From Cyanophora paradoxa CCMP329 (Eukaryota; Plantae; Glaucophyta): a stretch of DNA of 64,000 bases. Each line of letters starts with the position of its first letter. The first letter of the stretch is position 1. The translations under genes and the position numbers were made by a program. The stretch is from positions 291,441 to 355,440 of the forward strand of contig QPMI01000553.1 of assembly GCA_004431415.1 (NCBI GenBank), in the 5' to 3' direction. The notes under the pieces were generated by a model, which saw only the letters and a program-made list of their open reading frames with translations, did not search any database and was not told the DNA's origin. Below are positions 32,669-64,000 of the stretch, in pieces.

Positions 32669-32691
32669 ATTTATTGGCTACAAGAAAAAAA

Positions 32692-42932: not shown

Positions 42933-42964
<32 letters not shown>

Positions 42965-43001
42965 CCGGGGTGGCGGCGGCAGCGGCAGCGGTGGACGCTA
43001 A
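41787..43001 (+). CDS. Hypothetical protein with a Gly-rich C-terminus
   Basis: 404-aa ORF. Confidence 0.7.
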
Positions 43002-43020
43002 TTTCTGAAGCACGCCTAGC

Positions 43021-43350
43021 ATGGCAGCGACGGAGTCGACGCTGGGCGAGCAGATCGAGGCGCGCTGGGGCCGCTTCCTCGACCTGCTGGAGCCGGAGGC
43101 CAAGGAGCCGGGGGTACGGGCACAGATCCAGTCGCTGCGCGGCATAGGGGCCACGGCGGTCATCGTTCTATTTAGGAGGCACATCAACGCGGAGGCCGAA
43201 TTAATTAGAGCGAAAGACGACGGAGTTTTCGCGAAGCTGCCGCAGGAGTACGCCTCGGCCGTGCGCTCGCTCTTCTACGGGAGCGGGCCCGAGCTGCGCG
43301 AGAAACTGTGGCTTTACATCGAGCTCTTCGTCGAGCTGACCTCCGAGTAA
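43021..43350 (+). CDS. Hypothetical protein
   Basis: ORF with the upstream motif. Confidence 0.6.
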   Translation: MAATESTLGEQIEARWGRFLDLLEPEAKEPGVRAQIQSLRGIGATAVIVLFRRHINAEAELIRAKDDGVFAKLPQEYASAVRSLFYGSGPELREKLWLYIELFVELTSE

Positions 43351-43375
43351 ATATTTCTAAGGGGCAAGCGTAACC

Positions 43376-44179: not shown

Positions 44180-44233
44180 TTGTAAACGCTTGTAATCAAT
44201 TGCACCAGAGAATTTACAATTTATTCGTCTAAA

Positions 44234-45016: not shown

Positions 45017-45130
45017 GTTGTCTGAGCTTAGTGTGCGATCAGCCTAGCGCTAGAAAATATTTAAGGCCGCCCCACCTGACTTCAGGCTGACCTCGGGTGA
45101 GCGCTCAGGTGATTCAGGTAAAACACGTGT

Positions 45131-45421
45131 TCAATTCGTCTCACTGGGGAGGGGGAGAGCCTCAATCACGGCTACGCGAATATTCGAGAGTCTAAATCTG
45201 GCGCTGGGGCTGGCGACGGCGTACAGGGTGATCTCGTTCTTGGCGGGATTGAGCATGATGTGCTGGAAGCAGTCGCCCTTGCGGCACTCCAGCGAGATGT
45301 TGCGCAGCAGCCTGCAGTAGTTGAAGCAGATCTCGCCGTTCTCGTCGAGATCCTCGTCCATGGCCTCGTACTCGAAGATGCCGAAGGTCAGGCAGCAGGT
45401 CTCGTACTTGGGGGCGCACAT
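45131..45421 (-). CDS. Cys-rich hypothetical protein
   Basis: ORF with biased codons. Confidence 0.5.
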   Translation of the reverse strand: MCAPKYETCCLTFGIFEYEAMDEDLDENGEICFNYCRLLRNISLECRKGDCFQHIMLNPAKNEITLYAVASPSARFRLSNIRVAVIEALPLPSETN

Positions 45422-45517
45422 TCTTGATTTCTCTTGGCTGTGAAGTGTGAGCGAGGGCGCGGCGCGGCTGCGGTTTTGAGGCCGTTCAGGTGAGGGTCAG
45501 GTGAGCGCTCACCTGAA

Positions 45518-46917
45518 GAGGGGGGGGGAAGTGACGCGGACGCGAATACGTCATAGTCGAATACGTCATAGTCCAAAACCTGGACTCGGGACTCGGCCCA
45601 GGCCCCGCCGGTAAAAAAATAAGCTCGGACTTGGCGCCATTTTCTGAACCCCGGCTAGCTGCTTAATCCAGTACCATGGAGCCCGCCATCTCCCAGCTAG
45701 TCTCCCAGGGCGCCAAGCTCGACAAGGCCCTCAGTATCTACCTTCAGCTGATCGAGCTGGCCTGGCCGGAGCCAATGATAGCTCAGGCCTGCAAATCGCT
45801 CCACGTGGCGTTCGATGCGCCGTTCTCAGGTGACCCGACTCAGATGACATCCTGGACCAAGGAGGAGATAAAAGCCGACTTCGAGGCGCTTTTCTCATTT
45901 ATGAGCAAGAAGTATGCCGAAATCGAAGCAGCTAAAGCCGCAGCCGCAGCCGAAGACGAAGGCGCAGAAGGCACCGAAGCCTCAGCCGAAGGCCCTGCCG
46001 GCGACGAAGGCACCGAAGTTCAAGGCGCTGGGCCCTCTGCAGAAGGCCAAGGCCAAGGCCGACCTGCTTCCGCGTAGGCCCAAGGACATAGCCAAGGAGG
46101 CCAGCAGCCACAGGCCCGACTGGCCGGCGCCGGCGCCCTACCGCTACCTCAAGCTGGACAAGCGCAACGATACCGGCTTCACCAGGAGGAGGTGGCCTGA
46201 GCCCCTTCGGTGGCTGAAGCCAAGGGAGATCAAGTCTGGAGGCGGTATCGAGCTAGCGCTAGCGCTAGGAGGAGGCGGTGCAGACTTAGAGGAGCAGGCG
46301 CTGCTAGATACCATCAACTTGGGCAGGGTAGAGCTGAGCTAGCTAGCTGGTATCGATATCTAGCTAGCCTAGCGCTAGCCCAGTGCTTAATTAATTAACT
46401 GAAAGGTTGCGGAGGTTGCGGACGCGTCACAAATACGTCATAGTCGAATACGTCATAGTCCAAAACCTGGACTCGGGACTCGGCCCGGGCCCTGCCGGTA
46501 AAAAAAAGAGACTTGAACAAAAACACCGTACCCCGGTATTTAACTTGAAATCATCATGACATCATGTTCAAGTTGCTATGACATTAACTACATTCAAAAG
46601 CAATGAATGCAATAGTATTATTATTATACTAAGTATTATTATTATTATAATAGGGGTACAGTATTATTATTTGAAACTTGGCGAGAGTCTGGGCCCAGGT
46701 CCCAAGTCCAGGTTTTGGACTATGACGTATTCGACTATGACGTATTCGGACGCGTCACTTCTCCCCCTACTCAGCTGAACCAGCGGGGGTAGAGATGATG
46801 GCGCCAAGTCCGAGTCTATTTTTTTACCGGCAGGGCCCGGGCCGAGTCCCGAGTCCAGGTTTTGGACTATGACGTATTCGACTATGACGTATTCGCGTCC
46901 GCGTCACTTCTCCCCCT
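45518..46917. repeat. Four ~80-120-bp repeats (+,+,-,-) around an AT-rich core; candidate replication origin
   Basis: Each copy holds two (G)AATACGTCATAGTC units plus CAAAACCTGGACT. Copies at ~45518-45640 (+), 46433-46515 (+), 46692-46768 (-) and 46798-46917 (-). Confidence 0.9.
45676..46077 (+). CDS. Hypothetical protein
   Basis: ORF with the upstream TTTTCTGA motif. Confidence 0.5.
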   Translation: MEPAISQLVSQGAKLDKALSIYLQLIELAWPEPMIAQACKSLHVAFDAPFSGDPTQMTSWTKEEIKADFEALFSFMSKKYAEIEAAKAAAAAEDEGAEGTEASAEGPAGDEGTEVQGAGPSAEGQGQGRPASA

Positions 46918-46972
46918 CCTACGTTCGCAGCCGCCGGGCACCTCCCACAATTTTCCGAGGTACCCAGCAAGC

Positions 46973-47263
46973 ATGGACTTTACTGACTGCGCAGGTATCA
47001 AGCAGGAGCCCGAGGACCTTCTCTCCGCCGCCGCCGCCTCCGCCCCCAAGCAGCGCCGCCGCCGCGGGCCCAAGTCCCTCAGCTCCGAGCCCGAGATCCT
47101 GGCAACGCCGGCCCGCGAGCCAGAGACCGTGGACTTGACCCTGGAGGAGCCCGCGCGCGGCCCGCCCCGCCTCCTGATCCTGGCCGCGGCGGCCGCCGCG
47201 CTCTACTACGCGGCCCGGCGCCTGGGCCCGCAGCTCTCGGGCCTGGCCCGGAACCTTTTCTAA
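46973..47263 (+). CDS. Small protein with a C-terminal TM helix
   Basis: LLILAAAAAALYYAA. Confidence 0.55.
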   Translation: MDFTDCAGIKQEPEDLLSAAAASAPKQRRRRGPKSLSSEPEILATPAREPETVDLTLEEPARGPPRLLILAAAAAALYYAARRLGPQLSGLARNLF

Positions 47264-47273
47264 GTCTTGCCCA

Positions 47274-47615
47274 ATGGAGGCCCTGCTAGATCTCATGGCC
47301 TTTGCGCTGCCCATCTTCTTCCTAGTGGGCCTCAGCCGCATGGAGCGCGAGGCGCGCCAGCCCGAGCGCGTCGAGCGCGGCCTCACCGCCGAAGAGCAGC
47401 GCGGCCTCACCGAGTGGGACCTGGCGCTCATGGCCGGCCGCATGCTCAACGGCGACGCGCTCGAGCCGGGCCATCGCCTCAAGCTGGAGGACGGCGGCAC
47501 GGCCCTCTGGGACGGCGCGGCCTGGAAGCACGATTCGACGGGCGAGCCGATGAAGCTGCTCGCCTCCGGCAACAAGTACTGGCGCGGCGACTCGATGGAG
47601 TACCGGCGCCCGTGA
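47274..47615 (+). CDS. Small membrane-anchored protein
   Basis: N-terminal hydrophobic helix and the upstream motif. Confidence 0.55.
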   Translation: MEALLDLMAFALPIFFLVGLSRMEREARQPERVERGLTAEEQRGLTEWDLALMAGRMLNGDALEPGHRLKLEDGGTALWDGAAWKHDSTGEPMKLLASGNKYWRGDSMEYRRP

Positions 47616-47641
47616 TTTTCTAGCCCTTCTACCAGCAAAGA

Positions 47642-47926
47642 ATGGCTGACCCCTCGCCCGACCCGGCCGCAGGAGTTGAGAGCGCTGGCAGCTCGGACGA
47701 GTACTCGGAGCTCTCGGATCCGGATCCCGACGAGCCGTCCGACGCCTTCGCGACCGAGAACGAGCGCTCCCTCATGCGCATCTACGAGGCGCTGCGCGAA
47801 GCTATCTACTGGGAGGACCCGCGCCTAGGGACCCTCATGAACTTCGCCAAGTTTGCCGAGTTCATGTTCGCTATGACCGTGCCCTTTACCCGAGTCGTGC
47901 TCTGGGATAGGAACAGGAACTGGTAA
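47642..47926 (+). CDS. Hypothetical protein
   Basis: ORF with the upstream motif. Confidence 0.5.
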   Translation: MADPSPDPAAGVESAGSSDEYSELSDPDPDEPSDAFATENERSLMRIYEALREAIYWEDPRLGTLMNFAKFAEFMFAMTVPFTRVVLWDRNRNW

Positions 47927-47953
47927 CGGCATTGAATACAAGAGTACAGAGCC

Positions 47954-48358
47954 CTACGAGCTAGAGCTGCTATCGCCCGAGTCCAGGCGCGCCTTCTTGG
48001 CCTTGGAGCGGCGGAGGCGGGAGACGTACTGCAGGCGCAGGTTGCGCACGAGCAGCTCGCCGGCCGTGGTGCCCGGCAGCCCGGGAACCGCGTCCGTGGG
48101 CAGCAGCTGGCCCTCGCGTATCGCCCTGTACGTCTTGCGCTTGTTGAATGCAACCTTCTCCGTATCCTCCGTGCCGTCGTACTCGGACGTGGGAAGGAAC
48201 TGCGAGGCGGTCTTGGGGACTTCTAGAACCAGCGCGCGCTTGGCCTTCTTGATGGAGACTGCGTTCGCGCGCTCCAGCTTGACGCCGGGCTCCAGGGGGG
48301 TACCGTCCGCTGCGTTCTCAGCGAAGGAGACACGGGGGGAAGAGCCGCCGCGGGGCAT
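47954..48358 (-). CDS. Hypothetical protein
   Basis: ORF with the upstream motif. Confidence 0.55.
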   Translation of the reverse strand: MPRGGSSPRVSFAENAADGTPLEPGVKLERANAVSIKKAKRALVLEVPKTASQFLPTSEYDGTEDTEKVAFNKRKTYRAIREGQLLPTDAVPGLPGTTAGELLVRNLRLQYVSRLRRSKAKKARLDSGDSSSSS

Positions 48359-48370
48359 GGTTCGCTCGCT

Positions 48371-48805
48371 TTACCTAGCCTTTAGAAAATAGTCGAGCTG
48401 CGCGCTCTGCAGCCGCGCGCCCTGGTAGGCGCCGCGCAGCTGCCACGCGAGCCAGATTGCAAGGAGCACCGCGGCGACCCCGGCGGCGATCTTGGCGTAG
48501 TGCCAGAGCTTCTTCGCCTCGTCCGGCAGGTCGGCGATCGCCTTCGCGGCCTTCTCCGCCTTGTCTCCTATGCGCCCCGGCGCCGCCAGCGCGCCCAGGA
48601 GGAAGCTGGCCGCCTTGTCTGCAACGGGTACGTTCTCGTTCCCCTTGCGCTCGATGGCAATCGTTTGGGCCTGCGTCTGAGCTGCAACCTCAATCGCGTT
48701 TCCGGCACGCAGCACGCGGTTTGCCAGGCTGTCCTTGCCGGTCATGCCCTTGGTGCTGTTCGCGTCGTGCGCGTACGCGGCCATGAGCGCTGCCAGCCAG
48801 CCCAT
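48371..48805 (-). CDS. Membrane protein
   Basis: C-terminal TM segment IAAGVAAVLLAIWLAW. Confidence 0.6.
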   Translation of the reverse strand: MGWLAALMAAYAHDANSTKGMTGKDSLANRVLRAGNAIEVAAQTQAQTIAIERKGNENVPVADKAASFLLGALAAPGRIGDKAEKAAKAIADLPDEAKKLWHYAKIAAGVAAVLLAIWLAWQLRGAYQGARLQSAQLDYFLKAR

Positions 48806-48831
48806 CTTTAGCTAGCGCTTCGAAAATCTAT

Positions 48832-49302
48832 CTAAATCACGAGGCCGCGCAGGTACCAGACCATCAGGAGCGAGCCGCCCACCGCCACGAGCAGCGGCAG
48901 GTGCCCGTCGACCGCGCGCCGCGCCTCCCAGGCCCAGATCTCCTGGCGGCTCAGCCCGTTGGCATTGTCGAAATAGGCGCTCACGTCGTACGCGCGGCCG
49001 CCGGGCGGCTGCAGGCCCTCGCCCAGGCGCGGGTAGGCCTCCGCCTGCCTCTGCGAGACCAGCGCCGCCGTCGCCCCGTGCGCCGCCTCGCGCTGGCCCG
49101 GGGCGATCGCCACGAGGGACAGCGCCCCGATGCCCCTTCCCTTGCCCGCCGCCCTAATCGACTTCAGCGCGGGCGGCGCCGGGTCCGCCGCCTTGATCCT
49201 AGGCCCCTCCGCCCCGCCCCCCTTGGCAGCCTCGCCGATCTTGCTGCAGCGCGAGTCCGATTTGAACACCGTACACAACAGCTTCTCTACGGCGTTCGGC
49301 AT
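48832..49302 (-). CDS. Membrane protein
   Basis: C-terminal TM segment. Confidence 0.55.
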   Translation of the reverse strand: MPNAVEKLLCTVFKSDSRCSKIGEAAKGGGAEGPRIKAADPAPPALKSIRAAGKGRGIGALSLVAIAPGQREAAHGATAALVSQRQAEAYPRLGEGLQPPGGRAYDVSAYFDNANGLSRQEIWAWEARRAVDGHLPLLVAVGGSLLMVWYLRGLVI

Positions 49303-49662
49303 GTTCAGACGTGTACAGACAATGAAGAAAATTTAAATGCCAATGGGAATGCCAACGGACTCTGAACTTTGAAAGGGGAAAGGGGGGGAATTGAACTTGG
49401 GAAAACGTGGAAAAGGGAGAGTTAACGCCCCGCGGGGCGCATGCCGGCCGTCGCCATCGAGTAGGAGCCGGGGGCGTAGAGGGTCTTGGCGGCGTAGCGG
49501 AAGCCCACGCCGATGACGGCCGAGGCGGTGGGCGTGCCGCCGAGGAGCCAAGTGAGGGTCGCGGCGAGGGCTCCTAGCGAGTAATGCGGGGGATAGCTGT
49601 CAGCGAGGGCCATCGCGAGACCGAATTGGAAGGGGTTGAGAAAAAATACCGCCTCGGAGAGC

Positions 49663-49812
49663 TCAGTGGTGGAGGTGGCGGAAGGTCTCGGCGTGGGCCT
49701 CCGTCGCCGCCACCACCTCCTCCGCCGCGTCGATCTCCGCCCGCGAGGCCTCCAGCGTCGCCCGCCGCGCGTAGGACTGCGGGACGGCCACGCGCCGGTA
49801 GGGCTGGGCGAG
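49663..49812 (-). pseudogene. 3' part of a GC-rich gene interrupted by the PLV
   Basis: Removing 49813-63068 restores the frame ...GLAKTLA|QPYRRVAVPQ...FRHLHH*. Confidence 0.85.
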
Positions 49813-51168
49813 ACACATATTGAAAAACGAATTTAAATCCCTCGTTCATCTCGATCGCTTCGCGATCTCGATTCACTCTGGATTTAAATTCGTTTTTCAA
49901 TATGTGTTAATTTAATACTAAAATACATATTTTTCGATTAATTTCTTAAACTTTTTATGCAAACTTTGTATAAAATAATGCAAATTTTGTATTAAAAATG
50001 AAAATGCGTTTACCAAAATGCATATTTTCGATTAAACTTCGATAGATTCAATTGATCTTATATCGATTGATTATGTACTTTGTTGTTTACATACAAATCT
50101 GCGATAGATTAACATTAAACTGCTTAAAGATCGATATAATTGCGATTAAATTGCATAAATTCGCATAAACTCGATATATCTCTCATGTATTGAAGTAGAC
50201 CACCGCCCATTCTGTATCGAAAAACGCAAAAAGTGTCACAGAGTTGCATTGTGTCCAATTGAACAATCGATGAGATTGCTGATGTACATTTTTGCACCGA
50301 AAAAGTGTCACAGAGTTGCATTATCTCCCATTAAACAATCGATTAGATTGCGGGATTTTCTATTGGAATATATCGGAACTGCATTATGTCCAATTAAACA
50401 ATCGATGAGATTGCGGATTTATATTTTAGATCGAAAAAGTGTCACAGAGTTGCATGGTCTCCAATTGAACAATCGATTAGATTGCATATGTTCTATAAAA
50501 CAGAATAATTGAATTCAAGTGTGACAGGTAGTATTCAAATGATATTCAGTAATAGATATATTTGTTTTTGAGAAAGTCAGTAAGAGGGGTAGAATGTCTG
50601 TGACGCCTGTGACGGCTGTGACGCCTGTTTTCAGAAGTCTGTCATTTTTGAAAATTTTAAAAAGTTTGAAAGTAGGTGTCACAGGCGTCACAGGCGTCAC
50701 ACTCAATTAAATTAGGTGTCACAGCGAAATTGCAGACCATTTCCAGTAAGACAACTTCGCATTTTCAAAAAGGTTGATTAATGGATAGTGTTTTGGAGGT
50801 GTCAGAGGTGTCACAAGACGGATTGCAGTAAGACAAGAATATATTCTCGAAAATCTCAGTAAGAGAAAGAGATTCCATTTTTAATTGGGTGTGACGCCTG
50901 TGACGGCTGTGACGGCTGTTTTCAGAAGTCTGTCATTTTTGAAAATTTTAAAAAGTTTGAAAGTAGGCGTCACAGGCGTCACAGGCGTCACAGTCAATTA
51001 AATAGGTGTCACACCCGATTATCTGACCATTTTCAGTAAGACCATCTGAAATTCTGAATTTCTCAGTGTCAACTAACTCGGAAATCGCAATACTCTATGT
51101 TTCTCCGATTTCTCCAACCCTGAAAACACACCTGTTATTCTCTCATCTATCTCATGAGATACTCTCGT
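49813..51168 (+). repeat. Left terminal inverted repeat (1356 bp)
   Basis: Reverse complement of 61708-63062; the only difference noticed is one homopolymer indel (~50565). Confidence 0.95.
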
Positions 51169-51215
51169 TTCGCCAAAAATTGACAAACGATTTCCCATCA
51201 TGCTGTAAAGGAAAC

Positions 51216-51470
51216 ATGCCGATTAACCAGCCGTATTACAATTACTATGGGCATTACTTCTTGATTGTCAAGAAACTCACAGAGCATTATGAGATCTTCC
51301 AAGAGATGGGATTGCGAATTACAAGGAGATCAACCCTTTGTAGATTCTTGAAAAAGAATGGTGCTAAATGGGATAAGACAATTCGCCAATGGTATACAGA
51401 AGATCCCAAGAGTCCCCTTCTTGATATTTTCGAAACATTGAATCTGGATCAGTTTAATCATTTCCAATAG
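51216..51470 (+). CDS. Small protein with a DUF5710-like motif
   Basis: LKKNGAKWDKTIRQWY. Confidence 0.5.
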   Translation: MPINQPYYNYYGHYFLIVKKLTEHYEIFQEMGLRITRRSTLCRFLKKNGAKWDKTIRQWYTEDPKSPLLDIFETLNLDQFNHFQ

Positions 51471-52386
51471 CCAAGAACTCTAACTGGAATGAGTTGTCAA
51501 TTCCATTCATATCAACAAGATCACCATAATAATCTCGAAACTCAACTGTTAACTCTCTAATCACAAGGTTTCGATCGGTTATTTTTATGTATTCACTGTG
51601 CTCTCCACTGTGATAAACATACTGTCCAATATCTTTACTTAATTGCAATCTGAGAATCGCCCCTTGATTCTGTGGTTGAGATTGTGGGACAATATTGTGG
51701 TTTGTAGCAAATGGGGAGAGTTCTTTAATGTGCATGTATAAATACTGTTCTGCATTCATGTCTGTCATCTTGGATGCTTCTAACTTGTAGTTTAAGCGAG
51801 ATGCCTCGAATTCATATCCTGTGAATGTAATTCCCCATTGTGGATGGTTTGGGGTGATTGGTACTCCTGCAAAATAGAGGAAATTCTCGGGGGCATATAA
51901 AGACCTTGCAGACTCTGGGAAATCGTAGGTTTGCTCAATTGAAGCGACCCACTCCACAGAACTAACCCCAAGAAGTTTACCCAATCTCTGTGTAGATGCT
52001 ACCAATTCGAATTGAACATTACTGTAAAACTCTAACTTGTAGGAGGTCGGATTATAGTAGACTTTGAATGCATATGTGAGATTGTTGCTCCCAGTAAAGG
52101 TGAAATTCAGACCATAATTATATGGACTGGTGACCCCGAAATGCCCTTGATTAATATAACCACTTGGGAGAAGGAAGACCTGTTTGGTTTCAGAGATGCC
52201 TTGGTAGAAGAATCTGACAAGAAGGTGGTCTGTTCCAATGGAATTATAGATGCTGTTGGGGATCTCTGCATACAAAACTCGACATTCTCTTGGTTTGGTC
52301 ACTGGGGTTGTGAGTGAAACTTTGTAGGAGTTTTCTATTTGTCCATCTGATCGGTCTCTGCTATCTATATTGACCAGCCGAATCAT
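51454..52386 (-). CDS. Minor capsid (penton) protein
   Basis: N-terminal IDSRDR, AEIPNS.YN, YLYMHIKEL and LTVEFRDYYG.LVDMNG.D.SF.LE are typical of PLV/NCLDV minor capsid proteins. Confidence 0.85.
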   Translation of the reverse strand: MIRLVNIDSRDRSDGQIENSYKVSLTTPVTKPRECRVLYAEIPNSIYNSIGTDHLLVRFFYQGISETKQVFLLPSGYINQGHFGVTSPYNYGLNFTFTGSNNLTYAFKVYYNPTSYKLEFYSNVQFELVASTQRLGKLLGVSSVEWVASIEQTYDFPESARSLYAPENFLYFAGVPITPNHPQWGITFTGYEFEASRLNYKLEASKMTDMNAEQYLYMHIKELSPFATNHNIVPQSQPQNQGAILRLQLSKDIGQYVYHSGEHSEYIKITDRNLVIRELTVEFRDYYGDLVDMNGIDNSFQLEFLAIGND

Positions 52387-52414
52387 TTTAATATATGTTT
52401 ATAGATAAAAGAAG

Positions 52415-53424
52415 ATGCCTGTGGATTACATCGAAGTGAGCTCTTTCAATACAATTTCGGGAGATGGACCTACTTCGAGTTTTATTGCTCGCCTCCCAGC
52501 ACCTATGAATTTGTGAGAGCAGTAAGACTGGTTTCAGCAGAATTCTATAACAGCATTCCCATGGTGAGTGGTGAAACCAAACCAGGAGATGTGACAATAG
52601 ATAATGCAATCTACCTTTATTGGTCTGAATATTATTCTGGTGCAGGAAGCACTGGTATTCCAACTGATCGACCTGCTGCCGATTATGAGCAATGGAAACA
52701 CATTGTGATAAGTCGCAGCACACCCATTCAAAACCACCAACAACTGGTGAATGTAATTAACTCCAAACTTGCATTGAGAGAGCCACCAGTAGCAATTCGC
52801 TGTAAATGGGATGATACACTGAAACGAGTTATATTCCATTCAACCATACCGTTTTACCTGGCTTTCTCAACCGCAATTAACCCAAACCAGGCGCAGATTC
52901 AGAGGTTTTTGAGTTCTGCTCGACTGCTTGGTCTTGATCCTGGGAGATATGGTAACACCCCAATCCAATCACAAGTTTATAATACTCTGACTGATGGTAT
53001 CTTTACTGGGTCGATGGTGCATGGTATCATATCTTCATTTGAACCTGAAAAGACCAGGGATAGTGTTCTGTTTGTGAGAGTAAAGGAGTTGGGTGATCTG
53101 GTTCAATGTGGTGATGGTCTCCTCACTGGATATTTCCACAAAATCGTTGTTCCAGATAAAGATTATGGTGAGCATGTCGTTTATAATTCGACAGAAGCCC
53201 ATCCGATTTATAAATACTATAACAAGAATCTGGGACTTTCCACATTTTCGGTTGATATTGTGAATGCAGTTAATGAACCAATTGATTTCGAGGGTCAACC
53301 TGTCCACCTCACCTTCGAAATTCGATATGGTGATGAACCTGCTGGTGATCCTGTGTATGAATATTTCAAGAGGAGGATGGCGGAAACCCATCCATCTTAT
53401 CCTGTAATTGCGAGTTTTGCGTAA
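52415..53424 (+). CDS. Second penton-like protein; frameshift ~52508
   Basis: VRLVSAEF.NS, LFVRVKEL and FSVDIVN....IDFEG..VHLTFEI parallel the first penton; the ATG at 52415 is in the adjacent frame. Confidence 0.7.
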
Positions 53425-53478
53425 AATCAAGGATCATTGGTGAATTTTTTATGTTGCAGTATAATAAAAGAGATAATC

Positions 53479-54849
53479 ATGGATATTACTTCGACCCTCC
53501 AACGTCTTTCTCTGAAAGAAGCTCTAACAACCCCGGAAGAAGCCAAGGCGTTCTTCCTGGACAACTCTCTCATGCTTGGTCTTGAATCCAAGTCGAAGCC
53601 AGTTCTTGTTGTTGTGAACCCAAGCAACACTTTCGAGAATAATGCTGGAAATCGCATTTCTTTCAAGCTCCCTCGCTACAATTTCTGTGGAAAACTCGAA
53701 CTTGCGTTTGACCTTCCAGCTGTCACTTTTGCTGGTGATACCGACCTTGTTCGCAATGGATACGTTCGCCCAGTTGGTGCTCTTGTCTCTCGACTTGAAA
53801 TCACCTATGGATCTTACACTTTCCATGTGCCTTCTGATTTCCTTGCTCATTTCCCTCTTATCTATTACAGTGAGGATCAACTCGCCAAGAAGAAGCGTTC
53901 AATGGGTATGGTTCATGGTATCCCTGCCCATGGAACCAACCGACTTGGTGGGTCATTTTTCACTGAAATCCCAGTCCCATGGCTAAACCATTACCTACCT
54001 CTTGGTGCTCTCTCAGGAGAAATGGTGGTAACTGTCTGGTTCAAGGATGCTGGAAAGGGTTATGTTGAGACTTCTTATGGTGGTCGTGCTCTTCCAGTTG
54101 TTGGTGGAACAGCTGCTGATAAGACAGAGGATGATGGACTTGGTGCTACTGCTAATGCTACTCTTGCCCATGTTGGTCAACAGATCACCACTTTCACCAT
54201 CTCTGGAACAACCCCCGAAATTAAAGTCACTTCTCCTCGTCTTTACATGCATGCTATTAATGTTTCTGATGAACTGTTTGCTACTGTCATTGAGAAGGTG
54301 AAGACCACTGGTATGGCTATTCCTGCTCTGGATATTGGTTTTGTTGACAGTGTCAATTTTGCTGCAAAAGGCAATGCTCAACCAAATCGTATTAACCTGT
54401 CACAGATCTCTGGTCTTGTCTATGGTCTTCTTGTTTCAGTTCGTGATGCCGCAGGTATTGATGGTTTCAATGGTTCCCACAGTGTCCTAAAAACGCATGC
54501 TAACTCAAAAGACATTACTTTCACTGTTGAAATTAATGGTCAACGTCTCTATGCTACTGAGCCCATCCCTCTCCTCAAAGGTGCCGAATTAATTGCGGAT
54601 GCCTTCAAGTGCTCGAATATGGACAAGGTTGCAGACAAATATGTCCTCAGTGGTCTACCATTCTGTGTTGATGGAGAGAAAGCGATTCGCAACATTGCCC
54701 AGTCTGGCTATGTTGATCTCACGAACTCCTCCTCCTCTTTCCTCACTCTATACATGCCTTCTGACCAGACAATCACAGTTAATGTTCGTGCTCTCATGCA
54801 CAGTTTCATTATTGTTGACAAAGATGGGCTCCGACGAATTAATCTGTAA
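53479..54849 (+). CDS. Double jelly-roll major capsid protein of the PLV
   Basis: ~456 aa; ISFKLPR....LEL.FDLP and EIPVPW; lies between the pentons and the ATPase; biased codons. Confidence 0.8.
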   Translation: MDITSTLQRLSLKEALTTPEEAKAFFLDNSLMLGLESKSKPVLVVVNPSNTFENNAGNRISFKLPRYNFCGKLELAFDLPAVTFAGDTDLVRNGYVRPVGALVSRLEITYGSYTFHVPSDFLAHFPLIYYSEDQLAKKKRSMGMVHGIPAHGTNRLGGSFFTEIPVPWLNHYLPLGALSGEMVVTVWFKDAGKGYVETSYGGRALPVVGGTAADKTEDDGLGATANATLAHVGQQITTFTISGTTPEIKVTSPRLYMHAINVSDELFATVIEKVKTTGMAIPALDIGFVDSVNFAAKGNAQPNRINLSQISGLVYGLLVSVRDAAGIDGFNGSHSVLKTHANSKDITFTVEINGQRLYATEPIPLLKGAELIADAFKCSNMDKVADKYVLSGLPFCVDGEKAIRNIAQSGYVDLTNSSSSFLTLYMPSDQTITVNVRALMHSFIIVDKDGLRRINL

Positions 54850-54911
54850 AACCATGATCAGTAACGTTTCGTTATTTTTATCTATCTTTAATAAGAAAGA
54901 TCTACAAAGCC

Positions 54912-55445
54912 ATGTCTGACGTTCCCGAATTTAATGCTGCTGAGATGATTAAACCCCCTTTTCGCGTATTAGCAATCGGAAAAAGCGCGACGGGCAAGTC
55001 AGAAGCCGTAAAATATTGGCTAAAACAACTTCACGATGCGAAAAAGTTAGATGTTGTTCTTGTTATAAGTGGGACATCATTCAATCATTTTTGGGATGAT
55101 GTCGCAACATTACAGCTCGGTAAATGGGATGCGCCTTACATCGCTAAACTTCTCGATGAAAGACAAGAGAAAATTGAGAAAGGAGAACCCGTTAATCAAT
55201 TATGTGTTGTTCTCGATGATCTTATAGACAATGAGATTGTAGACCTTACCCGTGATAAAATTATTGGATCTCTGTATTCGCGCGGCCGCCACTCGGCGAT
55301 TACAATTTTCTGCATAACTCAGAAACTGCGTAAGGTTTCTTCAACCATTCGCGTCAATTCGGATTATGCAATGTTCCTCAGTGCCGCCAATCGCAAAGAA
55401 CTGGAAGCCATTGAAGAAGAATACAATATCATGCGGGATAAAGGT
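54912..55445 (+). CDS. A32-like packaging ATPase, C-terminally truncated by the GC-rich insert
   Basis: GKSATGKS, VVLDDL and SRGRHSAI...TQ...IRVNSDY. Confidence 0.9.
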
Positions 55446-57074
55446 TGCGGAGCTCGAGCGCCCGCGCGACGGCCTCGCGCTGCTCCTGGTTGAGCGGGGC
55501 GAGGAGGGGGAGCATCTCCCGGACCAGGCGCTCCCCCCGCGTCGGCTCGACGGGCTCGGTCCGCGTGGCCGTGCCGTCCCCGACGGCGCGGCGGATCTCG
55601 GTCCGGGCCGCCTCGGACGCGGCGGCGTTGTAGAGGGCGTAGAGCGCCCCGCGCATGAGGCCCGCGCCCTCCAGCGCCCCCGGACGAGGAGCGCGAGGGC
55701 CATCCAGGCCGCCAAGGCGGTCGCGAGGAGGGGGCCCGGAGGGTCAGCGAGACCCGCGACGAGGCAGTGCAAGAGGGCGGCCGCGAGCACGGGAAGGTGC
55801 ATCGCTCGGGCTCGGACGCGACCGCGCGGGGCGCCGCTTCTTTTGAATGGTCGCGCGGGGGCGGGCGCCCGCCGCCTTTGGGAAGAGGTGGATGATGATC
55901 ATGGATCGACGCGCCCGGAGCGATGCGTAAATAGGTGCGCAAAGACGACGACGGGACGCGAGGTCGCATGACGCGCACCAAGGCCCCCCGCGACGGGGGC
56001 GCCTCGACGGCCGGCAAGACGGTCGCCAGGTGGAAGAAGAAAACGCGCAGCAGCAAGCGCCTGACAAAGGAGCAGCGGAAGAGCATGCCGGCGAGCGGCG
56101 GGATCAAAAAGCCGAAACGGTGGAGGCCCGAGGCGCCGCTTCTTCTCGCCCCGGCGGTGCGCGACCTCTTCCTCGGTCGGGCGCTCGACCGCGAGGAGCG
56201 CCGCGGCGGCCTCGGCGGTCGCCAACCCGAGGGACTTTGCCGGCAGGTCGGAGACGATGCGGTGCCGCGGGTTGGTCCTCTGGAGCTTGGTCTCCGCGCG
56301 CGTGATATACGACTCGAGGGCCGCGTACGCCCCCGGATCCCCGATTTTGAGAAACTTTGCCGCGTCTCTCAGTGCCCCTAAAATGGGCTGGACGAGGACG
56401 CGCGGCGCCGGCGTCTGTATCGTAGTTGATTTTGTAGAAAATGGATTTTGGACCCAACCTCCCGCCCGCCCGTGACGTGATCGAGGCCCGCGCGACGAGC
56501 CGCCTCCCGAACCATCGCCCGCACCGCCGCGCGTCGCCGGCACGCGGCCTGGAGGGCGACCGCCGCGACGCAGCGCACGAGGGTCGCCTCGTCGCAAGAG
56601 GAGATGCGGGGCAGGGTCGCATGGGTCCGAACCGCGACGATCGCTGGGCGGGGGTCGAGGCCGCGGTCGTCGCCGACCTCTTGCGCGCGACGGCGCCCGA
56701 GGAGCGGGGGCCCGCCCGGATCATCTTCTTCGGCGACGCGGGCTTCCCGCGGTACGCGTCCTCGTACCCCGACCGCATCGAGCCGTGGCTCCTCCAGGCG
56801 GCGGTGGACTTTGCGGCCGACCCGCGCCGCCGCCCCCTCTCCATCGTCTTCCACACCTTGAGCCTCCGGAAGGCGTCCTGGTTCGACGAGCTGCGCGTCG
56901 GGCTAGAGTTCAATGGCGTGCAGATCGTGCGACACAACTGCCTGTGATTTTTTTTCACTGTAAATAAAAGTCACTCTTCCGTCTTCTTTTTCTTTGCCTC
57001 TGTAAACAGCATGCGCCGAGCCTTGCCGCGATCGATGTCCGCAAAGGGGTTCACGGAGCCGAACACGACGTTGG
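55446..57074. other. GC-rich foreign insert inside the PLV
   Basis: Abrupt GC shift; AAAGGT at 55440-55445 and 57075-57080. Confidence 0.85.
55968..56381 (+). CDS. ORF beginning with a histone H3 N-terminal-tail-like sequence (no histone fold)
   Basis: MTRTK...STAGK...RKSMPASGGIKKPKRWRP versus H3 MARTK..STGGK..RKSAPATGGVKKPHRYRP. Confidence 0.65.
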   Translation: MTRTKAPRDGGASTAGKTVARWKKKTRSSKRLTKEQRKSMPASGGIKKPKRWRPEAPLLLAPAVRDLFLGRALDREERRGGLGGRQPEGLCRQVGDDAVPRVGPLELGLRARDIRLEGRVRPRIPDFEKLCRVSQCP

Positions 57075-57080
57075 AAAGGT

Positions 57081-57845
57081 AACACAAGCAATACTTCCGC
57101 TCTTGTAGTCAAGAGTGGAGGAGCCTACATTGGTGATGGAGCAATTGTGGTGGGGACTGTCACAGCAAATCAATTTAATGTGAATGGAACAAGTTCATTT
57201 ACAGGATTGATGACCTTCAATGGTGGTCTTTCAGGAAGTATTCAGTATGGAACTCTCACACTGTCAACAAGATTAACAACTCCTGAGAGTGACACAATTG
57301 CAGACACCAACTTTATTTACAAACGAAATGGAAGCGCAATTGTGACACTACAAAATATCCAAACAACACCATCAAACAGAGAGGCGATCGTATTTTCATC
57401 AGGAAGCTATCTAAAACGAAATGGTTGCCCCCGTTTTATGGCTTCTGTTATGGCTCCGAATGCAGCAGAAACAACAGTTTCAAAAGCAACCGGAACGAAT
57501 ATTCTATTTCCAGGAGTTCTTATCAACCATGGAAACAACTTCAATGGTTCAACATTAGGGAATTTTACCGCCCCTGTTGCAGGAAATTATTACTTCTGTT
57601 TCCAAGTGATTATCTCAACCACTACTGCATCTGAGATTGTTCTGAATCTTCGGAAAAATGGAGCAACATCAGAATATGAGGCAAGAGCAACTTTTGCTTC
57701 CTCAATGTCACGATTACCTATATCATATGAATGCATCATCAACCTTGCTGCAAATGATTGGATACGAATTTACAATAATTCCACTGCTGCAATCGTATAC
57801 ACCAATCGATCGCACTTTGGAGGAATGCTGATTAGCGCCACATAA
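57081..57845 (+). pseudogene. C1q-domain fibre, N-terminus missing
   Basis: SALVVKSGGAYIGDG begins directly after the insert; FTAPVAGNYYF C1q motif. Confidence 0.8.
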
Positions 57846-57867
57846 TATTGTTACTTTAAAGTAAAGA

Positions 57868-58888
57868 ATGTCTACACAGATTGCTGTTCCTGTTTTCTGT
57901 TATGCAGCCCAAAATTGCATCAACTCAACCACACAGTAACAGATGCAACCCTGGGTTTATTTGCACAGAATCCACAGGAGCGGATTCATTTTCTCAAAAT
58001 TCTGTGATCAGATGCAAAGAGATACGATGTGATCGCAATAATGGAAAGGTGAGAGCCACTGGTTTAATTGTGTCAAATAAGAACCAAGTCCAATCGGGAT
58101 CGATTGTATCAGATACAGCAATTTATGATGATGTGGGAGGGTTCATCACACCGAAAATTATTACTTTTGACAACACCATGAATAACTCTGCTCTTGTAGT
58201 AAGAAGTGGAGGAGCCTACATTGGAGATGGGGCAAGGGTTGATGGAACTCTTACAGCAAGTCAACTTGCTGTGACAGGGACAACCACTTTTACAGGAATG
58301 GTTACAGCAAATGGTGGAGTCTCAGTAGCAACCAATTCTCAACCCACCATTACTGCAACAACAAGATTAGTAACTCCTGAAATTGATACAGGAGGAAATG
58401 TTGATCTTGTGTTGAAGCGAAACAGCAATACAGTAGCAACACTTGAAGCCAATTCGTTAACAATTAATACAGGGTGTTATTTAAAGAACAGCTTCCAACC
58501 AAGGTTCTGCTTCCGATTGGGTTATAATCACACTGCAACTTCTTCGACCGCTCTCATTAATTGGGCAACCAATCTTGTTAATGTAACAGGATCCTTCACT
58601 GGATCATCAGGAAGATTTACAGCTCCTGTTGCTGGACATTATCGATTCTCAGTTTTTACCAACTCAACAACACAAAACCCAATTCAGCTTTTCTTCAAAT
58701 TGAATGATGCCGATCCTGGGGGCATTTCTCTTTCTGTTTCCAGCACAGGCACATTAATAGTCAGACCTCTTCAAATGTCCTGCATTCTCAATCTTGCAGC
58801 CAACGAATATGTAACTATTTGGACAACAAACCAGGGGACATATTCCTCTGCAACAACATTTTGTGGAGAGTTGATAAGTATTACATAA
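57868..58888 (+). CDS. C1q-domain fibre protein; two frameshifts in the first ~100 nt
   Basis: GRFTAPVAGHYRF...TFCGEL; the ATG at 57868 gives MSTQIAVPVFCYAA. Confidence 0.8.
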
Positions 58889-58909
58889 TTTTCTTTTGAT
58901 AGAGTAAGA

Positions 58910-59173
58910 ATGTCGAATATCTATCAAGTGGTTCTATCAGATACTGAAAAGTTGGGGATGGAATTTTGTGCTGCTTCTGTTCAGGATTGGATCGATAATG
59001 CTGCCCACAACAGGGCAAGAATTGCAATTGATGAGATTGTTCAGAAAGAAGTTCAATCTTGCATTGCAGTAGGAGTTCAAATACCAACCACAAAGGAAGC
59101 GATTGTGTTACAGGCATTCCAAAGGGGAACTGTTAAAAAGGCGATTGAATATAACAATTTCACAGAAGAGTAG
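58910..59173 (+). CDS. Small protein, possibly a fibre-associated chaperone
   Basis: QDWIDNAAHNRARIAIDEIV; directly follows the C1q fibres. Confidence 0.6.
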   Translation: MSNIYQVVLSDTEKLGMEFCAASVQDWIDNAAHNRARIAIDEIVQKEVQSCIAVGVQIPTTKEAIVLQAFQRGTVKKAIEYNNFTEE

Positions 59174-59211
59174 TGAACATTATTTTTCTTTCCTTCTTAG
59201 TAAAAGAAGCA

Positions 59212-60066
59212 ATGGGTGAATATAATCGAGTTCAACTTCCAATATATTCCCTTGGATCCCCTGCAATGCACTTTCGCCAGCATGAAGTTAATGATGAGGT
59301 TCGTGGTTTAGAATCCACAGAGAGACCCAATTCCAATGGTAACTCCTTTGATAAAAATTCGATTATTCGAGTTAAAGAGCTGAGAGCTGATAAGAATTCA
59401 GGTGTGGTTAAAACAACTCGACTTCTTGTCACCAATGCTAACTTTTTCCAGCCTACAAATGGAGGTCCTGATGCTTACAGTGTTGATCTGAAAGCCCTGG
59501 ATTTCGATAAGAATTCTGCTGCTGCTACAATTCGTTCAGGTGGAGCATTTATTGGTGGTGGCTGTCGAGTTTCAGGTCAACTTTCTTCATCAATTTCGTA
59601 TAATGATGTCCCAGATACTCTTGAACAGAATGTGGAGAACCCACAACGAATTCGGTTCTATACACCAGTTGCACAGCAACCTTTTCTGCATTTCTATGTT
59701 GCATCATCTGTCACTCTTGAAAATTCAGAATTGGTTTCCATTACAGGAACTGATCGAGTGAGAAGGAATATTCCTCTTCCCACAGCAATGCTCTCAATGT
59801 GCAGAGCAAATAATAACCAACAAGGTCACAATTACCTATTCTTTGTTCAAGCATCCAACCATTTTGGTCGGGGATATTGTGTTTATAACAATCTGACATT
59901 TACTTATGATTTGTTTGTCACTGAGGTTGGAGTTTACAATACTATGATTATGGGACTGAGAACAGATATAGCAGCTGTTTCAGCACTTCGTGGGGTAAAC
60001 ATTGCAGATATCTTCACAACAGGGTTTTACCAGGAACCAGATGTGATTGATAACCCAACCCCATAA
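59212..60066 (+). CDS. Fibre-family paralog (shared N-terminal domain)
   Basis: KELRADKNSGVVKTTRLLVTN...SGGAFIGGG. Confidence 0.75.
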   Translation: MGEYNRVQLPIYSLGSPAMHFRQHEVNDEVRGLESTERPNSNGNSFDKNSIIRVKELRADKNSGVVKTTRLLVTNANFFQPTNGGPDAYSVDLKALDFDKNSAAATIRSGGAFIGGGCRVSGQLSSSISYNDVPDTLEQNVENPQRIRFYTPVAQQPFLHFYVASSVTLENSELVSITGTDRVRRNIPLPTAMLSMCRANNNQQGHNYLFFVQASNHFGRGYCVYNNLTFTYDLFVTEVGVYNTMIMGLRTDIAAVSALRGVNIADIFTTGFYQEPDVIDNPTP

Positions 60067-60089
60067 ATTATATATCACTTTAATGTAAA

Positions 60090-60917
60090 ATGGCTGCCCC
60101 AGTAGAGCGAATTATTACACCCCAGCTATCATTAGCAGCACCTGCAAATCACGTTTTGCAGCATGCTACTTTTGATGATGTAGAAGGTCTCCAATCCACA
60201 GAAGTACAACCTACCATGAATACCTTTGGTTCCACCCATAAACTGAGATTGCAGGAACTCAGATGTGATAAAAATAATGGTATAGTTAAGACAACGAAAC
60301 TCCTTGTCACCAATGCAAACTTTTCTGCCCATTATGGAGACCCAGACAGTTATGGTGATCCTCTTTCTACTTATTCTTTTGAATCTCGGTCGGGAGCTAT
60401 TAACTGCAAAACGGGGGGAGCATATATTGGTGATGGTCTTCGGATTGGTGGAGCTGTGGGTGCGCCTCTTTTCGTAAATGATCAACCCAATCCCATTGAT
60501 CCCAACACCAGAATTCGCACCTATGTCCCCAGTATGAATGCACCATATATTATAAAGATCTTCCCAATTGTTGTGAATGAACAGACATCAGTAGTTGATT
60601 CTCTTGTTGAGATTGGTGACCACTACAAGGTGGTCGTGGATATTCCACCAGATGTTTATGCTGTCTGTCAAGTAGAGGGTGGAACCCCAAATATTGCAGT
60701 TGTAATCACTCCATATGACAATTTCGGGATTGCTTATCATGGAGTGAATTTCGGTCTTGAAGATTACCAGTTTTTGGTGAGAGCCACCAGATTTGGTATC
60801 TACAAATGCATTCTCTATGCTGAGAGAACCGATGCTATTGCAAGACAGAATACATATGCAGAATATTACGGCACAAATCGATACTTCCCCATTTTCGGGC
60901 AGGATACTGCTCCATAG
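60090..60917 (+). CDS. Fibre-family paralog (shared N-terminal domain)
   Basis: QELRCDKNNGIVKTTKLLVTN...TGGAYIGDG. Confidence 0.75.
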   Translation: MAAPVERIITPQLSLAAPANHVLQHATFDDVEGLQSTEVQPTMNTFGSTHKLRLQELRCDKNNGIVKTTKLLVTNANFSAHYGDPDSYGDPLSTYSFESRSGAINCKTGGAYIGDGLRIGGAVGAPLFVNDQPNPIDPNTRIRTYVPSMNAPYIIKIFPIVVNEQTSVVDSLVEIGDHYKVVVDIPPDVYAVCQVEGGTPNIAVVITPYDNFGIAYHGVNFGLEDYQFLVRATRFGIYKCILYAERTDAIARQNTYAEYYGTNRYFPIFGQDTAP

Positions 60918-60942
60918 AAATCTCAGGTATATATAGAGAGGA

Positions 60943-61215
60943 ATGGATGATAAAACAAAGAAATTCATAGAATCTGCAATGATGGTTCATGGTGATGCTA
61001 AATTCGATTACAGTGAGACAGTGTATAAGAAAGCACAAGAGAAGGTCTCTGTTAGATGCCTTAAATGCAACAAGATCCTCCAAACCTACCCATTTAATCA
61101 TGTAAGGGGAAGTGGATGCAGAGAGTGCAACAAGAAATCCTCTCATGCTTACAGAAAAAAGACTACATCAGGAATTGTGATAGATGATAAACCAGTGGTA
61201 CTGTACTTTGATTAG
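60943..61215 (+). CDS. DUF723-like Zn-ribbon DNA-binding protein
   Basis: FIESA..VHGD.KFDYS..VY.....KV...C..C.......NH..GSGC.EC. Confidence 0.7.
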   Translation: MDDKTKKFIESAMMVHGDAKFDYSETVYKKAQEKVSVRCLKCNKILQTYPFNHVRGSGCRECNKKSSHAYRKKTTSGIVIDDKPVVLYFD

Positions 61216-61401
61216 ATCTTTGAGAGAGAAATGAGAATCCTTCCCCATTTTCCCTTGGTGATTATGCATGTGTCAAAGCAGTTTGGACAGGTCTTGTGGT
61301 AGTGCAACAGAATGATATCCACCAACTCATAAGGTAGCACTCTTGCTAAGATGGTTCGCATTCTACCAATCGCGTTTTTAATTTTTCTAAATTATTCATA
61401 A

Positions 61402-61803
61402 ATGAATACTCATCGAGGCTTCCATGTGATGCTGGATTACAAATTCAGAACCCAATTAGCAGTAGGAGTGGAAGACTTGGAGACAACAACCAGGTGGTTA
61501 ATGCAGTTCTTGCAAACTATTATTCAAGAGCAAGGTATTCGAGTAGTTCACAAGCATTGCGAGATTTTCGATGGTGGTATTTCTCCTCCTGGTTTTGCAA
61601 TGGTTCTTCTGCTGGATGAGAGCCACTGCACTGCTCACTGTTACTCAAATGAAGGTATGTTGGCGATTGATATATTCAGTTGTGGATTAGAAGCAGAGAG
61701 AAAAACCACGAGAGTATCTCATGAGATAGATGAGAGAATAACAGGTGTGTTTTCAGGGTTGGAGAAATCGGAGAAACATAGAGTATTGCGATTTCCGAGT
61801 TAG
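61402..61803 (+). CDS. speD: S-adenosylmethionine decarboxylase proenzyme-like (prokaryotic class)
   Basis: G.HVMLD, LLDESHCTAHCY (E/S autocleavage site) and LAIDIFSCG. Confidence 0.85.
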   Translation: MNTHRGFHVMLDYKFRTQLAVGVEDLETTTRWLMQFLQTIIQEQGIRVVHKHCEIFDGGISPPGFAMVLLLDESHCTAHCYSNEGMLAIDIFSCGLEAERKTTRVSHEIDERITGVFSGLEKSEKHRVLRFPS

Positions 61804-63062
61804 TTGACACTGAGAAATTCAGAATTTCAGATGGTCTTACTGAAAATGGTCAGATAATCGGGTGTGACACCTATTTAATTGACTGTGACGCCTGTGACGC
61901 CTGTGACGCCTACTTTCAAACTTTTTAAAATTTTCAAAAATGACAGACTTCTGAAAACAGCCGTCACAGCCGTCACAGGCGTCACACCCAATTAAAAATG
62001 GAATCTCTTTCTCTTACTGAGATTTTCGAGAATATATTCTTGTCTTACTGCAATCCGTCTTGTGACACCTCTGACACCTCCAAAACACTATCCATTAATC
62101 AACCTTTTTGAAAATGCGAAGTTGTCTTACTGGAAATGGTCTGCAATTTCGCTGTGACACCTAATTTAATTGAGTGTGACGCCTGTGACGCCTGTGACAC
62201 CTACTTTCAAACTTTTTAAAATTTTCAAAAATGACAGACTTCTGAAAACAGGCGTCACAGCCGTCACAGGCGTCACAGACATTCTACCCCTCTTACTGAC
62301 TTTCTCAAAACAAATATATCTATTACTGAATATCATTTGAATACTACCTGTCACACTTGAATTCAATTATTCTGTTTTATAGAACATATGCAATCTAATC
62401 GATTGTTCAATTGGAGACCATGCAACTCTGTGACACTTTTTCGATCTAAAATATAAATCCGCAATCTCATCGATTGTTTAATTGGACATAATGCAGTTCC
62501 GATATATTCCAATAGAAAATCCCGCAATCTAATCGATTGTTTAATGGGAGATAATGCAACTCTGTGACACTTTTTCGGTGCAAAAATGTACATCAGCAAT
62601 CTCATCGATTGTTCAATTGGACACAATGCAACTCTGTGACACTTTTTGCGTTTTTCGATACAGAATGGGCGGTGGTCTACTTCAATACATGAGAGATATA
62701 TCGAGTTTATGCGAATTTATGCAATTTAATCGCAATTATATCGATCTTTAAGCAGTTTAATGTTAATCTATCGCAGATTTGTATGTAAACAACAAAGTAC
62801 ATAATCAATCGATATAAGATCAATTGAATCTATCGAAGTTTAATCGAAAATATGCATTTTGGTAAACGCATTTTCATTTTTAATACAAAATTTGCATTAT
62901 TTTATACAAAGTTTGCATAAAAAGTTTAAGAAATTAATCGAAAAATATGTATTTTAGTATTAAATTAACACATATTGAAAAACGAATTTAAATCCAGAGT
63001 GAATCGAGATCGCGAAGCGATCGAGATGAACGAGGGATTTAAATTCGTTTTTCAATATGTGT
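61708..63062 (-). repeat. Right terminal inverted repeat (1355 bp)
   Basis: Reverse complement of 49813-51168. Confidence 0.95.
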
Positions 63063-64000
63063 GGCGAGGGTCTTCGCCAGCCCCGCCGTCTCCGCCTCGA
63101 ACGCCCGCCAAGTCTCCGAGGCCTCCGCACCGGAGATCTGGCGGGCGCGGAATCCCGCCTCCAGCTCGGCGCGGAAGGCGAGGGTGCGCTGGAGGCGCTG
63201 GGCCCAGAGGGCCTGGCGCCGCTCCTCCGCCTCGCGCGCCTGGCGCGCCGCCAGCGCCTGCCGCTCGGCCTCCTGCTGGGCCCCGAAGCCCTGGATCGCG
63301 GAGAGGACGGCGCCGGGGCCGGGGACGGGCGCGGCGAAGGCGGCGGGGACGGGGCTGCGGTCGGCGAGGGAGAAGGGGACGGGGCTGGGGCCGGCGCTGC
63401 TGGAGGGGGCGGCCGAGGCCGAGCGCGCGCGCGAGCCCGAGGCCGAGCGCGAGCCCGAGCTGCCGTAGCCGCTGGGGCCGGCGCCGCCGTCCACGGGGCT
63501 GCTGCGGAAGCTGCCCGCGGGGGAGGCGCCCTCGCCCTGGCCCGAGGGTCAGGAGGGGGGCGGGGGAAAGGGGGGTACGGGGAGGGCGCGGGTGCGGGGC
63601 CGGACCTGGCGCGGCAGCATCTCGTCGATGCGCTGCTGGCCGGCGTGCTGCTGGGCGGCGGGGGCGAACGACGGGGGCGGGGGCGGGACGAAGCCGGGGG
63701 CCGAGTTGCGGGCGCGCTTGCCCTTGCCCCTGTTCGAGGCCGTGACGGGGAAGGGGCCGTTCTCCGGGTCCGCCGGCAGGGTGAAGCGGATGGCCTGCAG
63801 GGCCGGCTGCGTCGGGCCGAGGGAGAGCGGGGCCTTGGGGACGATGCCGCGGATGTAGGTCTCCCAGACGCCGCCGGCCTTGTAGGAGAAGAGGCGGCAC
63901 TTGGGGCCGAAGGCGGCGATGGTCTCGTCCAGCGCGCCGTTCTCGATGTCGGCGGCGAGGGCGGCGGAGGCGTCCGGGCCCTGCGCACGGCGGCGTCAGC
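63063..64000 (-). pseudogene. 5' part of the PLV-interrupted gene (continues beyond the window; probable frameshifts)
   Basis: ORF 63063-63494 joins in frame to 49663-49812. Further coding-like sequence (DIENGALDETIAAFGPKCRLFSYK) extends to the window edge. Confidence 0.65.

Follow-up and report, generated by a model that had tools for sequence, protein, structure and literature searches.

A histone H3 tail-like segment in a polinton-like element (PLV) of Cyanophora paradoxa is best explained, with a probability of roughly 0.6, as the first third of an H3-derived gene of ~153 codons from another, likely viral, genome. The gene lies in a single-copy foreign block and was probably broken by a 278-base inversion. 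All coordinates refer to the window, i.e. the whole 64-kb stretch of DNA that was analysed. The segment and the ORF containing it are:

55968..56129, plus strand: H3 tail-like segment, 54 codons with intact ATG, equivalent to H3 ~1-43 plus ~10 extra residues

55968..56381, plus strand: ORF as present, 54 H3-like codons followed by 83 codons antisense to segment C (56132..56409, see below)

The ATG at 55968 starts a 137-codon ORF. Against 177,635 PDB sequences, ORF residues 27-54 matched H3 ~16-43 with a best E of 1.6e-4, and the best 60 of 108 matches were all H3 or H3 chimeras. Over query residues 33-54, 15/22 positions were identical to H3. Equivalents of K27, S28, K36, K37, R40, R42 and P43 were retained, which confirmed the K27-K36 segment noted in an earlier reading of this DNA (the sequence-only reading). 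Profile comparison of the tail segment with viral H3s gave match probabilities of 85-94%. The H3 residue numbers and helix limits applied here to the tail segment and to segment C follow the usual H3 numbering. The H3 match ended at P43, and with the whole 137-codon ORF as PDB query it stopped at residue 56-57 and included no histone fold. Similarity had been said to end exactly where the fold begins. It does end, at P43, but this is before alphaN, and presumably another ~20 residues separate it from the start of the fold proper.

The sequence-only reading had also listed equivalents of R2-T3-K4 and S10-T11-K14, and here the outcome was mixed. Both were seen in global alignment with viral H3 tails, which placed ~10 extra residues in the tail, and the two short N-terminal motifs were rare in shuffles (0.006 and 0.003; test picked post hoc). 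However, the residues of these motifs alone had no PDB match, the global alignment score of residues 2-26 reached p values of only 0.08-0.29 versus shuffles for 10/10 H3 tails, and the K9 equivalent is not lysine.

The tail segment is of low complexity (19/54 residues are K or R) and had no Pfam match, as would suit a fortuitous resemblance in a frame rich in K and R, or a chimeric assembly. Such an origin is very improbable given the E value and profile probabilities above, the presence of only H3 among the matches listed, the placement at an ATG with a GC3 of 0.93, and contigs of three runs that were identical base for base; it is considered largely refuted. Judged by its matches, the stretch is genuinely derived from H3.

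Homolog searches with the tail returned nothing besides the query itself. One metagenome match was rejected as fortuitous, since it lies antisense within a gene of bacterial type. An intact homolog of the tail-bearing gene was not found in the homolog searches, and the uninverted gene described below is a reconstruction from one sequence. In EukProt, the 137-aa ORF was present only as a singleton. This entry is probably a gene model, because its neighbours bear model-style names and the species set was predicted with AUGUSTUS, as given for the published C. paradoxa gene set in the relevant part of PMC6704402.

The segment is located within a PLV as part of a GC-rich block. The element, the block and the genes on both sides of it are:

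49813..63062, no strand: low-GC polinton-like element, 13.25 kb, ~40% GC, with 1.35-kb terminal inverted repeats and 6-bp target-site duplication

54912..55443, plus strand: A32-like packaging ATPase (Pfam Pox_A32, E 1.1e-8), truncated by the block

55444..57077, no strand: foreign block, 1,634 bp, 70% GC, single-copy depth, replacing PLV sequence

57078..57845, plus strand: C1q-domain fibre gene, ~90 codons missing at the 5' end

The terminal inverted repeats were identical at 1355/1355 aligned bases, with one gap. Each PLV end (49813-49907 and 62968-63062) is a 95-nt imperfect palindrome with 46-nt arms that are 85% complementary, and the two palindromes are mutual reverse complements, like the flip/flop forms of a hairpin terminus. 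A 456-aa ORF before the ATPase is a candidate gene for the double jelly-roll major capsid protein. It had no Pfam, PHROG or PDB match, and its pairwise match to the neighbouring capsid protein is weak (E 0.02). Searches with both capsid candidates in viral contigs found nothing besides the query. Neither a replicase nor an integrase was recognised among the scanned ORFs of the PLV copy, and no unassigned ORF exceeded 456 aa. A 6-bp target duplication without these recognisable genes points either to a non-autonomous family or to the replacement of a large segment. The PLV also carries an S-adenosylmethionine decarboxylase-like gene at 61402-61803 (Pfam E 6e-11). Fibre-like genes at 57902-58888, 59212-60917 and, in a separate element further left, 22735-23580 have a common N-terminal module and C1q domains. 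An Rfam scan of 49800-63100 yielded nothing.

The PLV was inserted within a gene of a GC-rich viral region. This minus-strand gene is split into 49440-49812 and 63063-63374 and has a one-base frameshift near 49680. At ~30800-49800, the region holds a GC-rich mriyavirus-like element with VLTF3, an NCLDV-type capsid protein, DUF5767 and a possible HUH motif in 32692-33549. In the cluster of the NCLDV-type capsid protein, 13/14 members were named C. paradoxa gene models, which points to a multi-copy endogenous family and makes this glaucophyte the most probable host. The same element contains a 1.4-kb unit (45522-46916) bounded by a 135-nt inverted repeat (93%) that also recurs inside the unit. 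A short T-rich motif ~14-25 nt before the ATG was observed in many GC-rich viral and several PLV genes (starts at 33549, 40322, 43021, 43376, 47642, 48358, 58910, 59212 and 61402) and is a candidate shared late promoter.

GC content was 0.70 in the block versus 0.42 and 0.40 on its two flanks. In each of 3/3 DNA runs, the block was matched by one contig with 0 differences. In 3/3 DNA runs, sister-copy contigs agreed with the reference only up to 55443 on the left and from 57078 on the right, and beyond these points continued the ATPase and fibre frames. At the left junction, contigs carried 30 flanking letters, one below the bridging rule; the right junction was bridged by 42 letters in run X19. 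At least 96% of the block words were contained in 19/24 listed runs, 18 of these 19 being flagged as possible sources and thus not independent. Block depth was 66 in run X1 and 104 in X19. Several unrelated chance contigs had depths of 58-70 (X1) and 86-92 (X19), others of 17-19, 44-64 and 126-169. Identical PLV contigs beside the block reached 1037-1279 in X1. The block is single-copy, depth (a rough guide) and the unbranched contig being in agreement.

The H3 tail is not a gene of the PLV family, since the block has single-copy depth, is missing from the sister copies at this site and truncates the ATPase of the element. The peptide is carried inside the PLV, as had been stated, but only as part of a foreign block. 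By removing the ATPase end and ~90 codons of the fibre gene, the block left this PLV copy defective. No repeat of the block's own was found at the block ends, which suggests entry by illegitimate recombination or break repair.

Besides the H3-derived sequences, the block contains the following genes:

55444..55802, minus strand: gene A, orphan with hydrophobic N-terminus, frameshifted once near 55681 and truncated by the left junction

56441..56947, plus strand: gene D, 168-aa orphan ORF with predicted alpha/beta C-terminal domain

57011..57077, plus strand (uncertain): putative 5' end of another gene, truncated by the right junction

The block genes are compact, intron-free orphans, and none is H4. 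They had no paralog in the 64-kb window and no identified homolog in searches: gene A matched only the query, gene D had no true relative, and the segment C search likewise returned only the query itself. Two non-self matches of gene D (a tick chitinase and an ankyrin protein) were discarded as repeat-summed artefacts, and Atlas matches for gene D and segment C scored under 0.9. The notion that gene D carries two frameshifts or an internal inversion was given up, as segmentation resolves it into a single ORF. For the possible gene start at 57011, GC3 was 0.82 over 22 codons and segmentation favoured the minus strand. Codon use of all block segments was closer to the GC-rich viral genes than to the PLV genes. 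The likely donor of the block is a GC-rich DNA virus of the same host, a viral nature judged solely from the arrangement of the genes and their codon use, as no relatives were identified for genes A, C and D.

A search for the source locus had been proposed as a check in the sequence-only reading. Contigs of the DNA runs, through which the host was probed, indicate that the block is unique: among the matches listed there was no second copy at 80% identity or more, only 19-40 bp pieces, none of them within the tail. Identity to part of a host H3 variant gene, which in a unique and untranscribed fragment had been named as the refuting outcome, was not seen, as no other host locus matched at 80% or more among the matches listed. 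These results bear on whether the tail is a piece of an H3 variant or CenH3 gene acquired from the host genome. The high GC3 would fit a GC-rich host too, and CenH3s are described in part of PMC9145170 as having long, variable tails. On the other side stand the lack of a listed second copy, the contig running unbranched across the block, and neighbours that are compact orphans and neither H4 nor spliced host genes. CenH3 combines a conserved fold, including a centromere-targeting region, with a tail unlike that of H3. The pattern in the tail and segment C is the reverse, with an H3-like tail and no H3-like fold. A host fragment is accordingly improbable. The proposal that the peptide is a captured fragment of a divergent H3-like gene thus holds for its derivation from H3, but the donor looks viral and not like a host H3 or CenH3 gene.

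The block-borne gene appears to be interrupted at ~56130, where the following features were defined:

56132..56139, no strand: left arm (GGCGCCGC) of the 8-bp inverted repeat and likely breakpoint of the inversion, at most 10 nt from the coding-strand change point

56402..56409, no strand: right arm of the 8-bp inverted repeat, exact repeat

56132..56409, minus strand: segment C, 278 bp, 93 codons, likely inverted 3' part of the H3-derived gene

56410..56429, plus strand: likely 3' end of the uninverted gene with its final codons and TGA stop (56427-56429), which lies 11 nt upstream of the next ATG

The tail ORF has its ATG, an upstream spacer and the whole tail intact, with no stop near the tail end. 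The coding signal changes strand at codon 53-54, after which the minus strand is in register (reached by 0/2000 permutations); the earlier remark that the ORF runs antisense into a coding-like fragment was therefore correct. Segment C lacks an ATG and a nearby stop and has a GC3 of 0.88. When the 278 bp were flipped in silico, a single 153-codon ORF was obtained (GC3 0.88), with its TGA 11 nt before gene D. One inversion would explain the absent stop of the tail ORF, the absent start and stop of segment C and their common reading register. The 8-bp pair was the only exact inverted repeat of at least 7 nt between 56090-56170 and 56360-56450. Such a repeat is expected by chance in 1.8-3.5% of random GC-rich window pairs (30x30 to 41x45 nt) and in 17% over the full search area; the block is also rich in 8-bp inverted repeats (89 overlapping pairs of 8-mers). 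The flip lifted the codon-model score by 31 log units and ranked 552 of 68,975 flips. The repeat-defined flip was 8 log units under the best flip and outside the top set, so that the right breakpoint is not pinned by codons. An ORF ending ahead of gene D was also obtained with 1222/1845 nearby breakpoint pairs and carries little weight alone. On balance, it is quite probable that segment C is inverted relative to the tail. The mosaic junction proposed at ~56130 is real insofar as coding switches there, but it is probably an inversion breakpoint and not the joining of two genes.

The same junction could also be a deletion mosaic, in which loss of sequence at ~56130 joined the start of an otherwise ordinary viral H3 gene (full-length or tail-only) to an unrelated convergent gene fragment, the repeat being due to chance. 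Codon data alone do not separate deletion from inversion. Segment C was not recognised as H3 by Pfam, phmmer, HMM, hhalign or Foldseek, giant-virus contigs do have single H3s with longer tails, and the block bears another lesion, the frameshift in gene A. A deletion would, however, require a second lesion to remove the start of segment C. Chance would also have to account for the common reading register, for a repeat flanking C on both sides, for a stop that falls in frame ahead of gene D and for an alphaN-like patch in segment C. We regard it as unlikely, and the inversion is retained in what follows.

The 137-aa product might be a working decoy of this PLV copy that soaks up H3K27/K36 writers or readers and aids escape from silencing. 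The intact ATG, upstream spacer and tail, the kept K27 and K36 equivalents and the EukProt entry would be in keeping with this. Codons 55-137 are, however, antisense to the real coding strand, neither 27 nor 36 shows a K-to-M change, and the neighbouring EukProt entries are genome gene models from an AUGUSTUS-predicted species set (PMC6704402, as far as its gene-set description goes). Moreover, the block is single-copy, missing from sister copies at the site and disruptive to both ATPase and fibre gene. A working decoy at this locus is therefore improbable, and the PLV-carried decoy suggested by the sequence-only reading was not upheld as a family-wide PLV trait. At this locus the gene is probably dead, the only product that could be made being the tail fused to antisense junk. 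No RNA run was among the listed runs that contain the block words, and two RNA-labelled runs with the same species label had no piece over the ORF; neither observation speaks for or against expression. For the donor gene the decoy idea survives, on account of a tail that was kept without a recognisable fold.

A histone fold was not found in segment C by Pfam, phmmer, HMM or hhalign. Global alignment with 20 viral H3 folds (drawn from 26/46 loci) gave a Z of 0.31, no better than shuffles. Single-sequence models had pLDDT values of 59 and 66, and neither had a Foldseek match at E 0.001 or better; the segment C model (pLDDT 66, low confidence) was all-helical. The best H3-like patch in segment C resembles alphaN and after the flip lands 12 residues past the tail, i.e. 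at the 5' end of C. Its shuffle P was 0.0026 and its score was reached by 0/823 real-ORF windows, at 19.8 versus 41-52 for true alphaN. Element-wise traces in C gave P values of 0.007 for alphaN, 0.16 for alpha1, 0.055 for loop 1 to early alpha2 and 0.034 for alpha3. The combined co-linear H3 score, for which slices were picked by eye and post hoc, was reached by 3/3000 shuffles and 1/1053 real windows; it was 82.6 for segment C versus 219-262 for true folds. Segment C may be an eroded H3 or an unrelated helical domain fused to the tail. Its divergence probably arose under coding selection, since it retains an open frame and strong codon bias, with the tail as the conserved part.

Taken as a sequence of events, a GC-rich DNA virus of the same host would be the source genome, and the block would have entered the PLV copy by illegitimate recombination or break repair. 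The inversion may have occurred at the 8-bp arms via template switching or recombination. The intact donor protein would have consisted of a basic H3 tail, a helical domain without a working histone fold and a basic C-terminus. It would enter the nucleus, offer counterparts of K4, K27 and K36 to the writers and readers of the host, and act as a competing substrate instead of a nucleosome builder. A competing substrate is favoured over a K-to-M poison because the K27 and K36 equivalents are lysines. By eye, two giant-virus H3s among 46 viral-contig H3 loci have methionine at K27 (L004:601-629 and L008:601-629), and one locus has methionine at K23 (L035). The host likely methylates and silences the region, by analogy with the C. 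paradoxa data given in PMC12344493, where genes of viral origin are over-represented in the methylated set and most of that set is silent.

Viral H3 genes, histone mimics and GC-rich inserts disabling endogenous PLVs are already known. H3 genes are also described for skiaviruses and mirusviruses. The H3s of Dishui Lake phycodnavirus 1, sylvanvirus and Manila clam xenomavirus, as presented in part of PMC9145170, resemble the present case in that an H3-like gene stands alone in a viral context and its tail is modified and longer. According to the same source, identity to host H3 across the fold is 73-87% for the six single viral H3s, an identity that segment C does not reach. Single giant-virus and MAG H3s thus keep the fold, whereas here the fold was undetected, the K27-P43 tail was conserved, and the gene is broken and PLV cargo. 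Compared with nucleosomal H3, the K27-P43 tail segment is present and a histone fold after the tail is not. In the present and in the flipped reading alike, an H3 tail stands on a protein without a working fold, as in a tail mimic. Such a tail-presenting mimic is what we infer for the donor, because its tail is conserved without the fold, opposite to single viral H3s. An H3-derived donor gene with tail kept and fold unrecognisable likely represents the pattern expected of a tail mimic.

Mimics of the influenza NS1 and SARS-CoV-2 ORF8 type are proposed to compete for chromatin enzymes. Like the donor protein, they carry H3 tail sequence on a protein that does not work as a histone, but theirs are motifs of a few residues, whereas here the whole tail (~43 H3 positions) is involved, apparently derived from an H3 gene and known from sequence alone (PMC11738798, sections on these mimics). 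Retrotransposon insertions (4-9.5 kb) in endogenous PLVs and virophages, as covered in part of PMC12220804, are similar in that a GC-rich insert disables a low-GC element. Unlike those retrotransposons, the block has no reverse transcriptase, direct repeats or target duplication, replaces PLV sequence and carries orphan genes (PMC12220804, same part). Mriyaviruses have VLTF3, an NCLDV-type capsid protein and a possible HUH motif in common with the flanking element (PMC11253617), which the block resembles in codon use. The word "histone" is absent from the main text of that paper, and no block gene has a paralog in the 64-kb window. A term search of PMC10120064 gave no match. The literature search found no description of an H3 tail in a PLV or of this locus; supplementary tables could list such genes.

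Going further, it is conceivable, at somewhat below even odds, that a GC-rich DNA virus infecting glaucophytes encodes an H3 that is turning into a decoy, with the tail kept and the fold eroded under coding selection to a non-nucleosomal helical domain, and that the PLV captured this gene from a virus that was its helper or rival, thereby fixing it in the genome of the host. One broken, unreplicated sequence points to a protein family to seek and not to a mechanism shown. If the reconstruction is true, the locus presents a PLV carrying a gene cluster of a different, unsampled virus. It would then also document how a genuine histone gene can become a tail mimic, its conservation being the opposite of that seen in single viral H3s, and the mimic would have arisen in a host lineage in which viral DNA is methylated and silenced.
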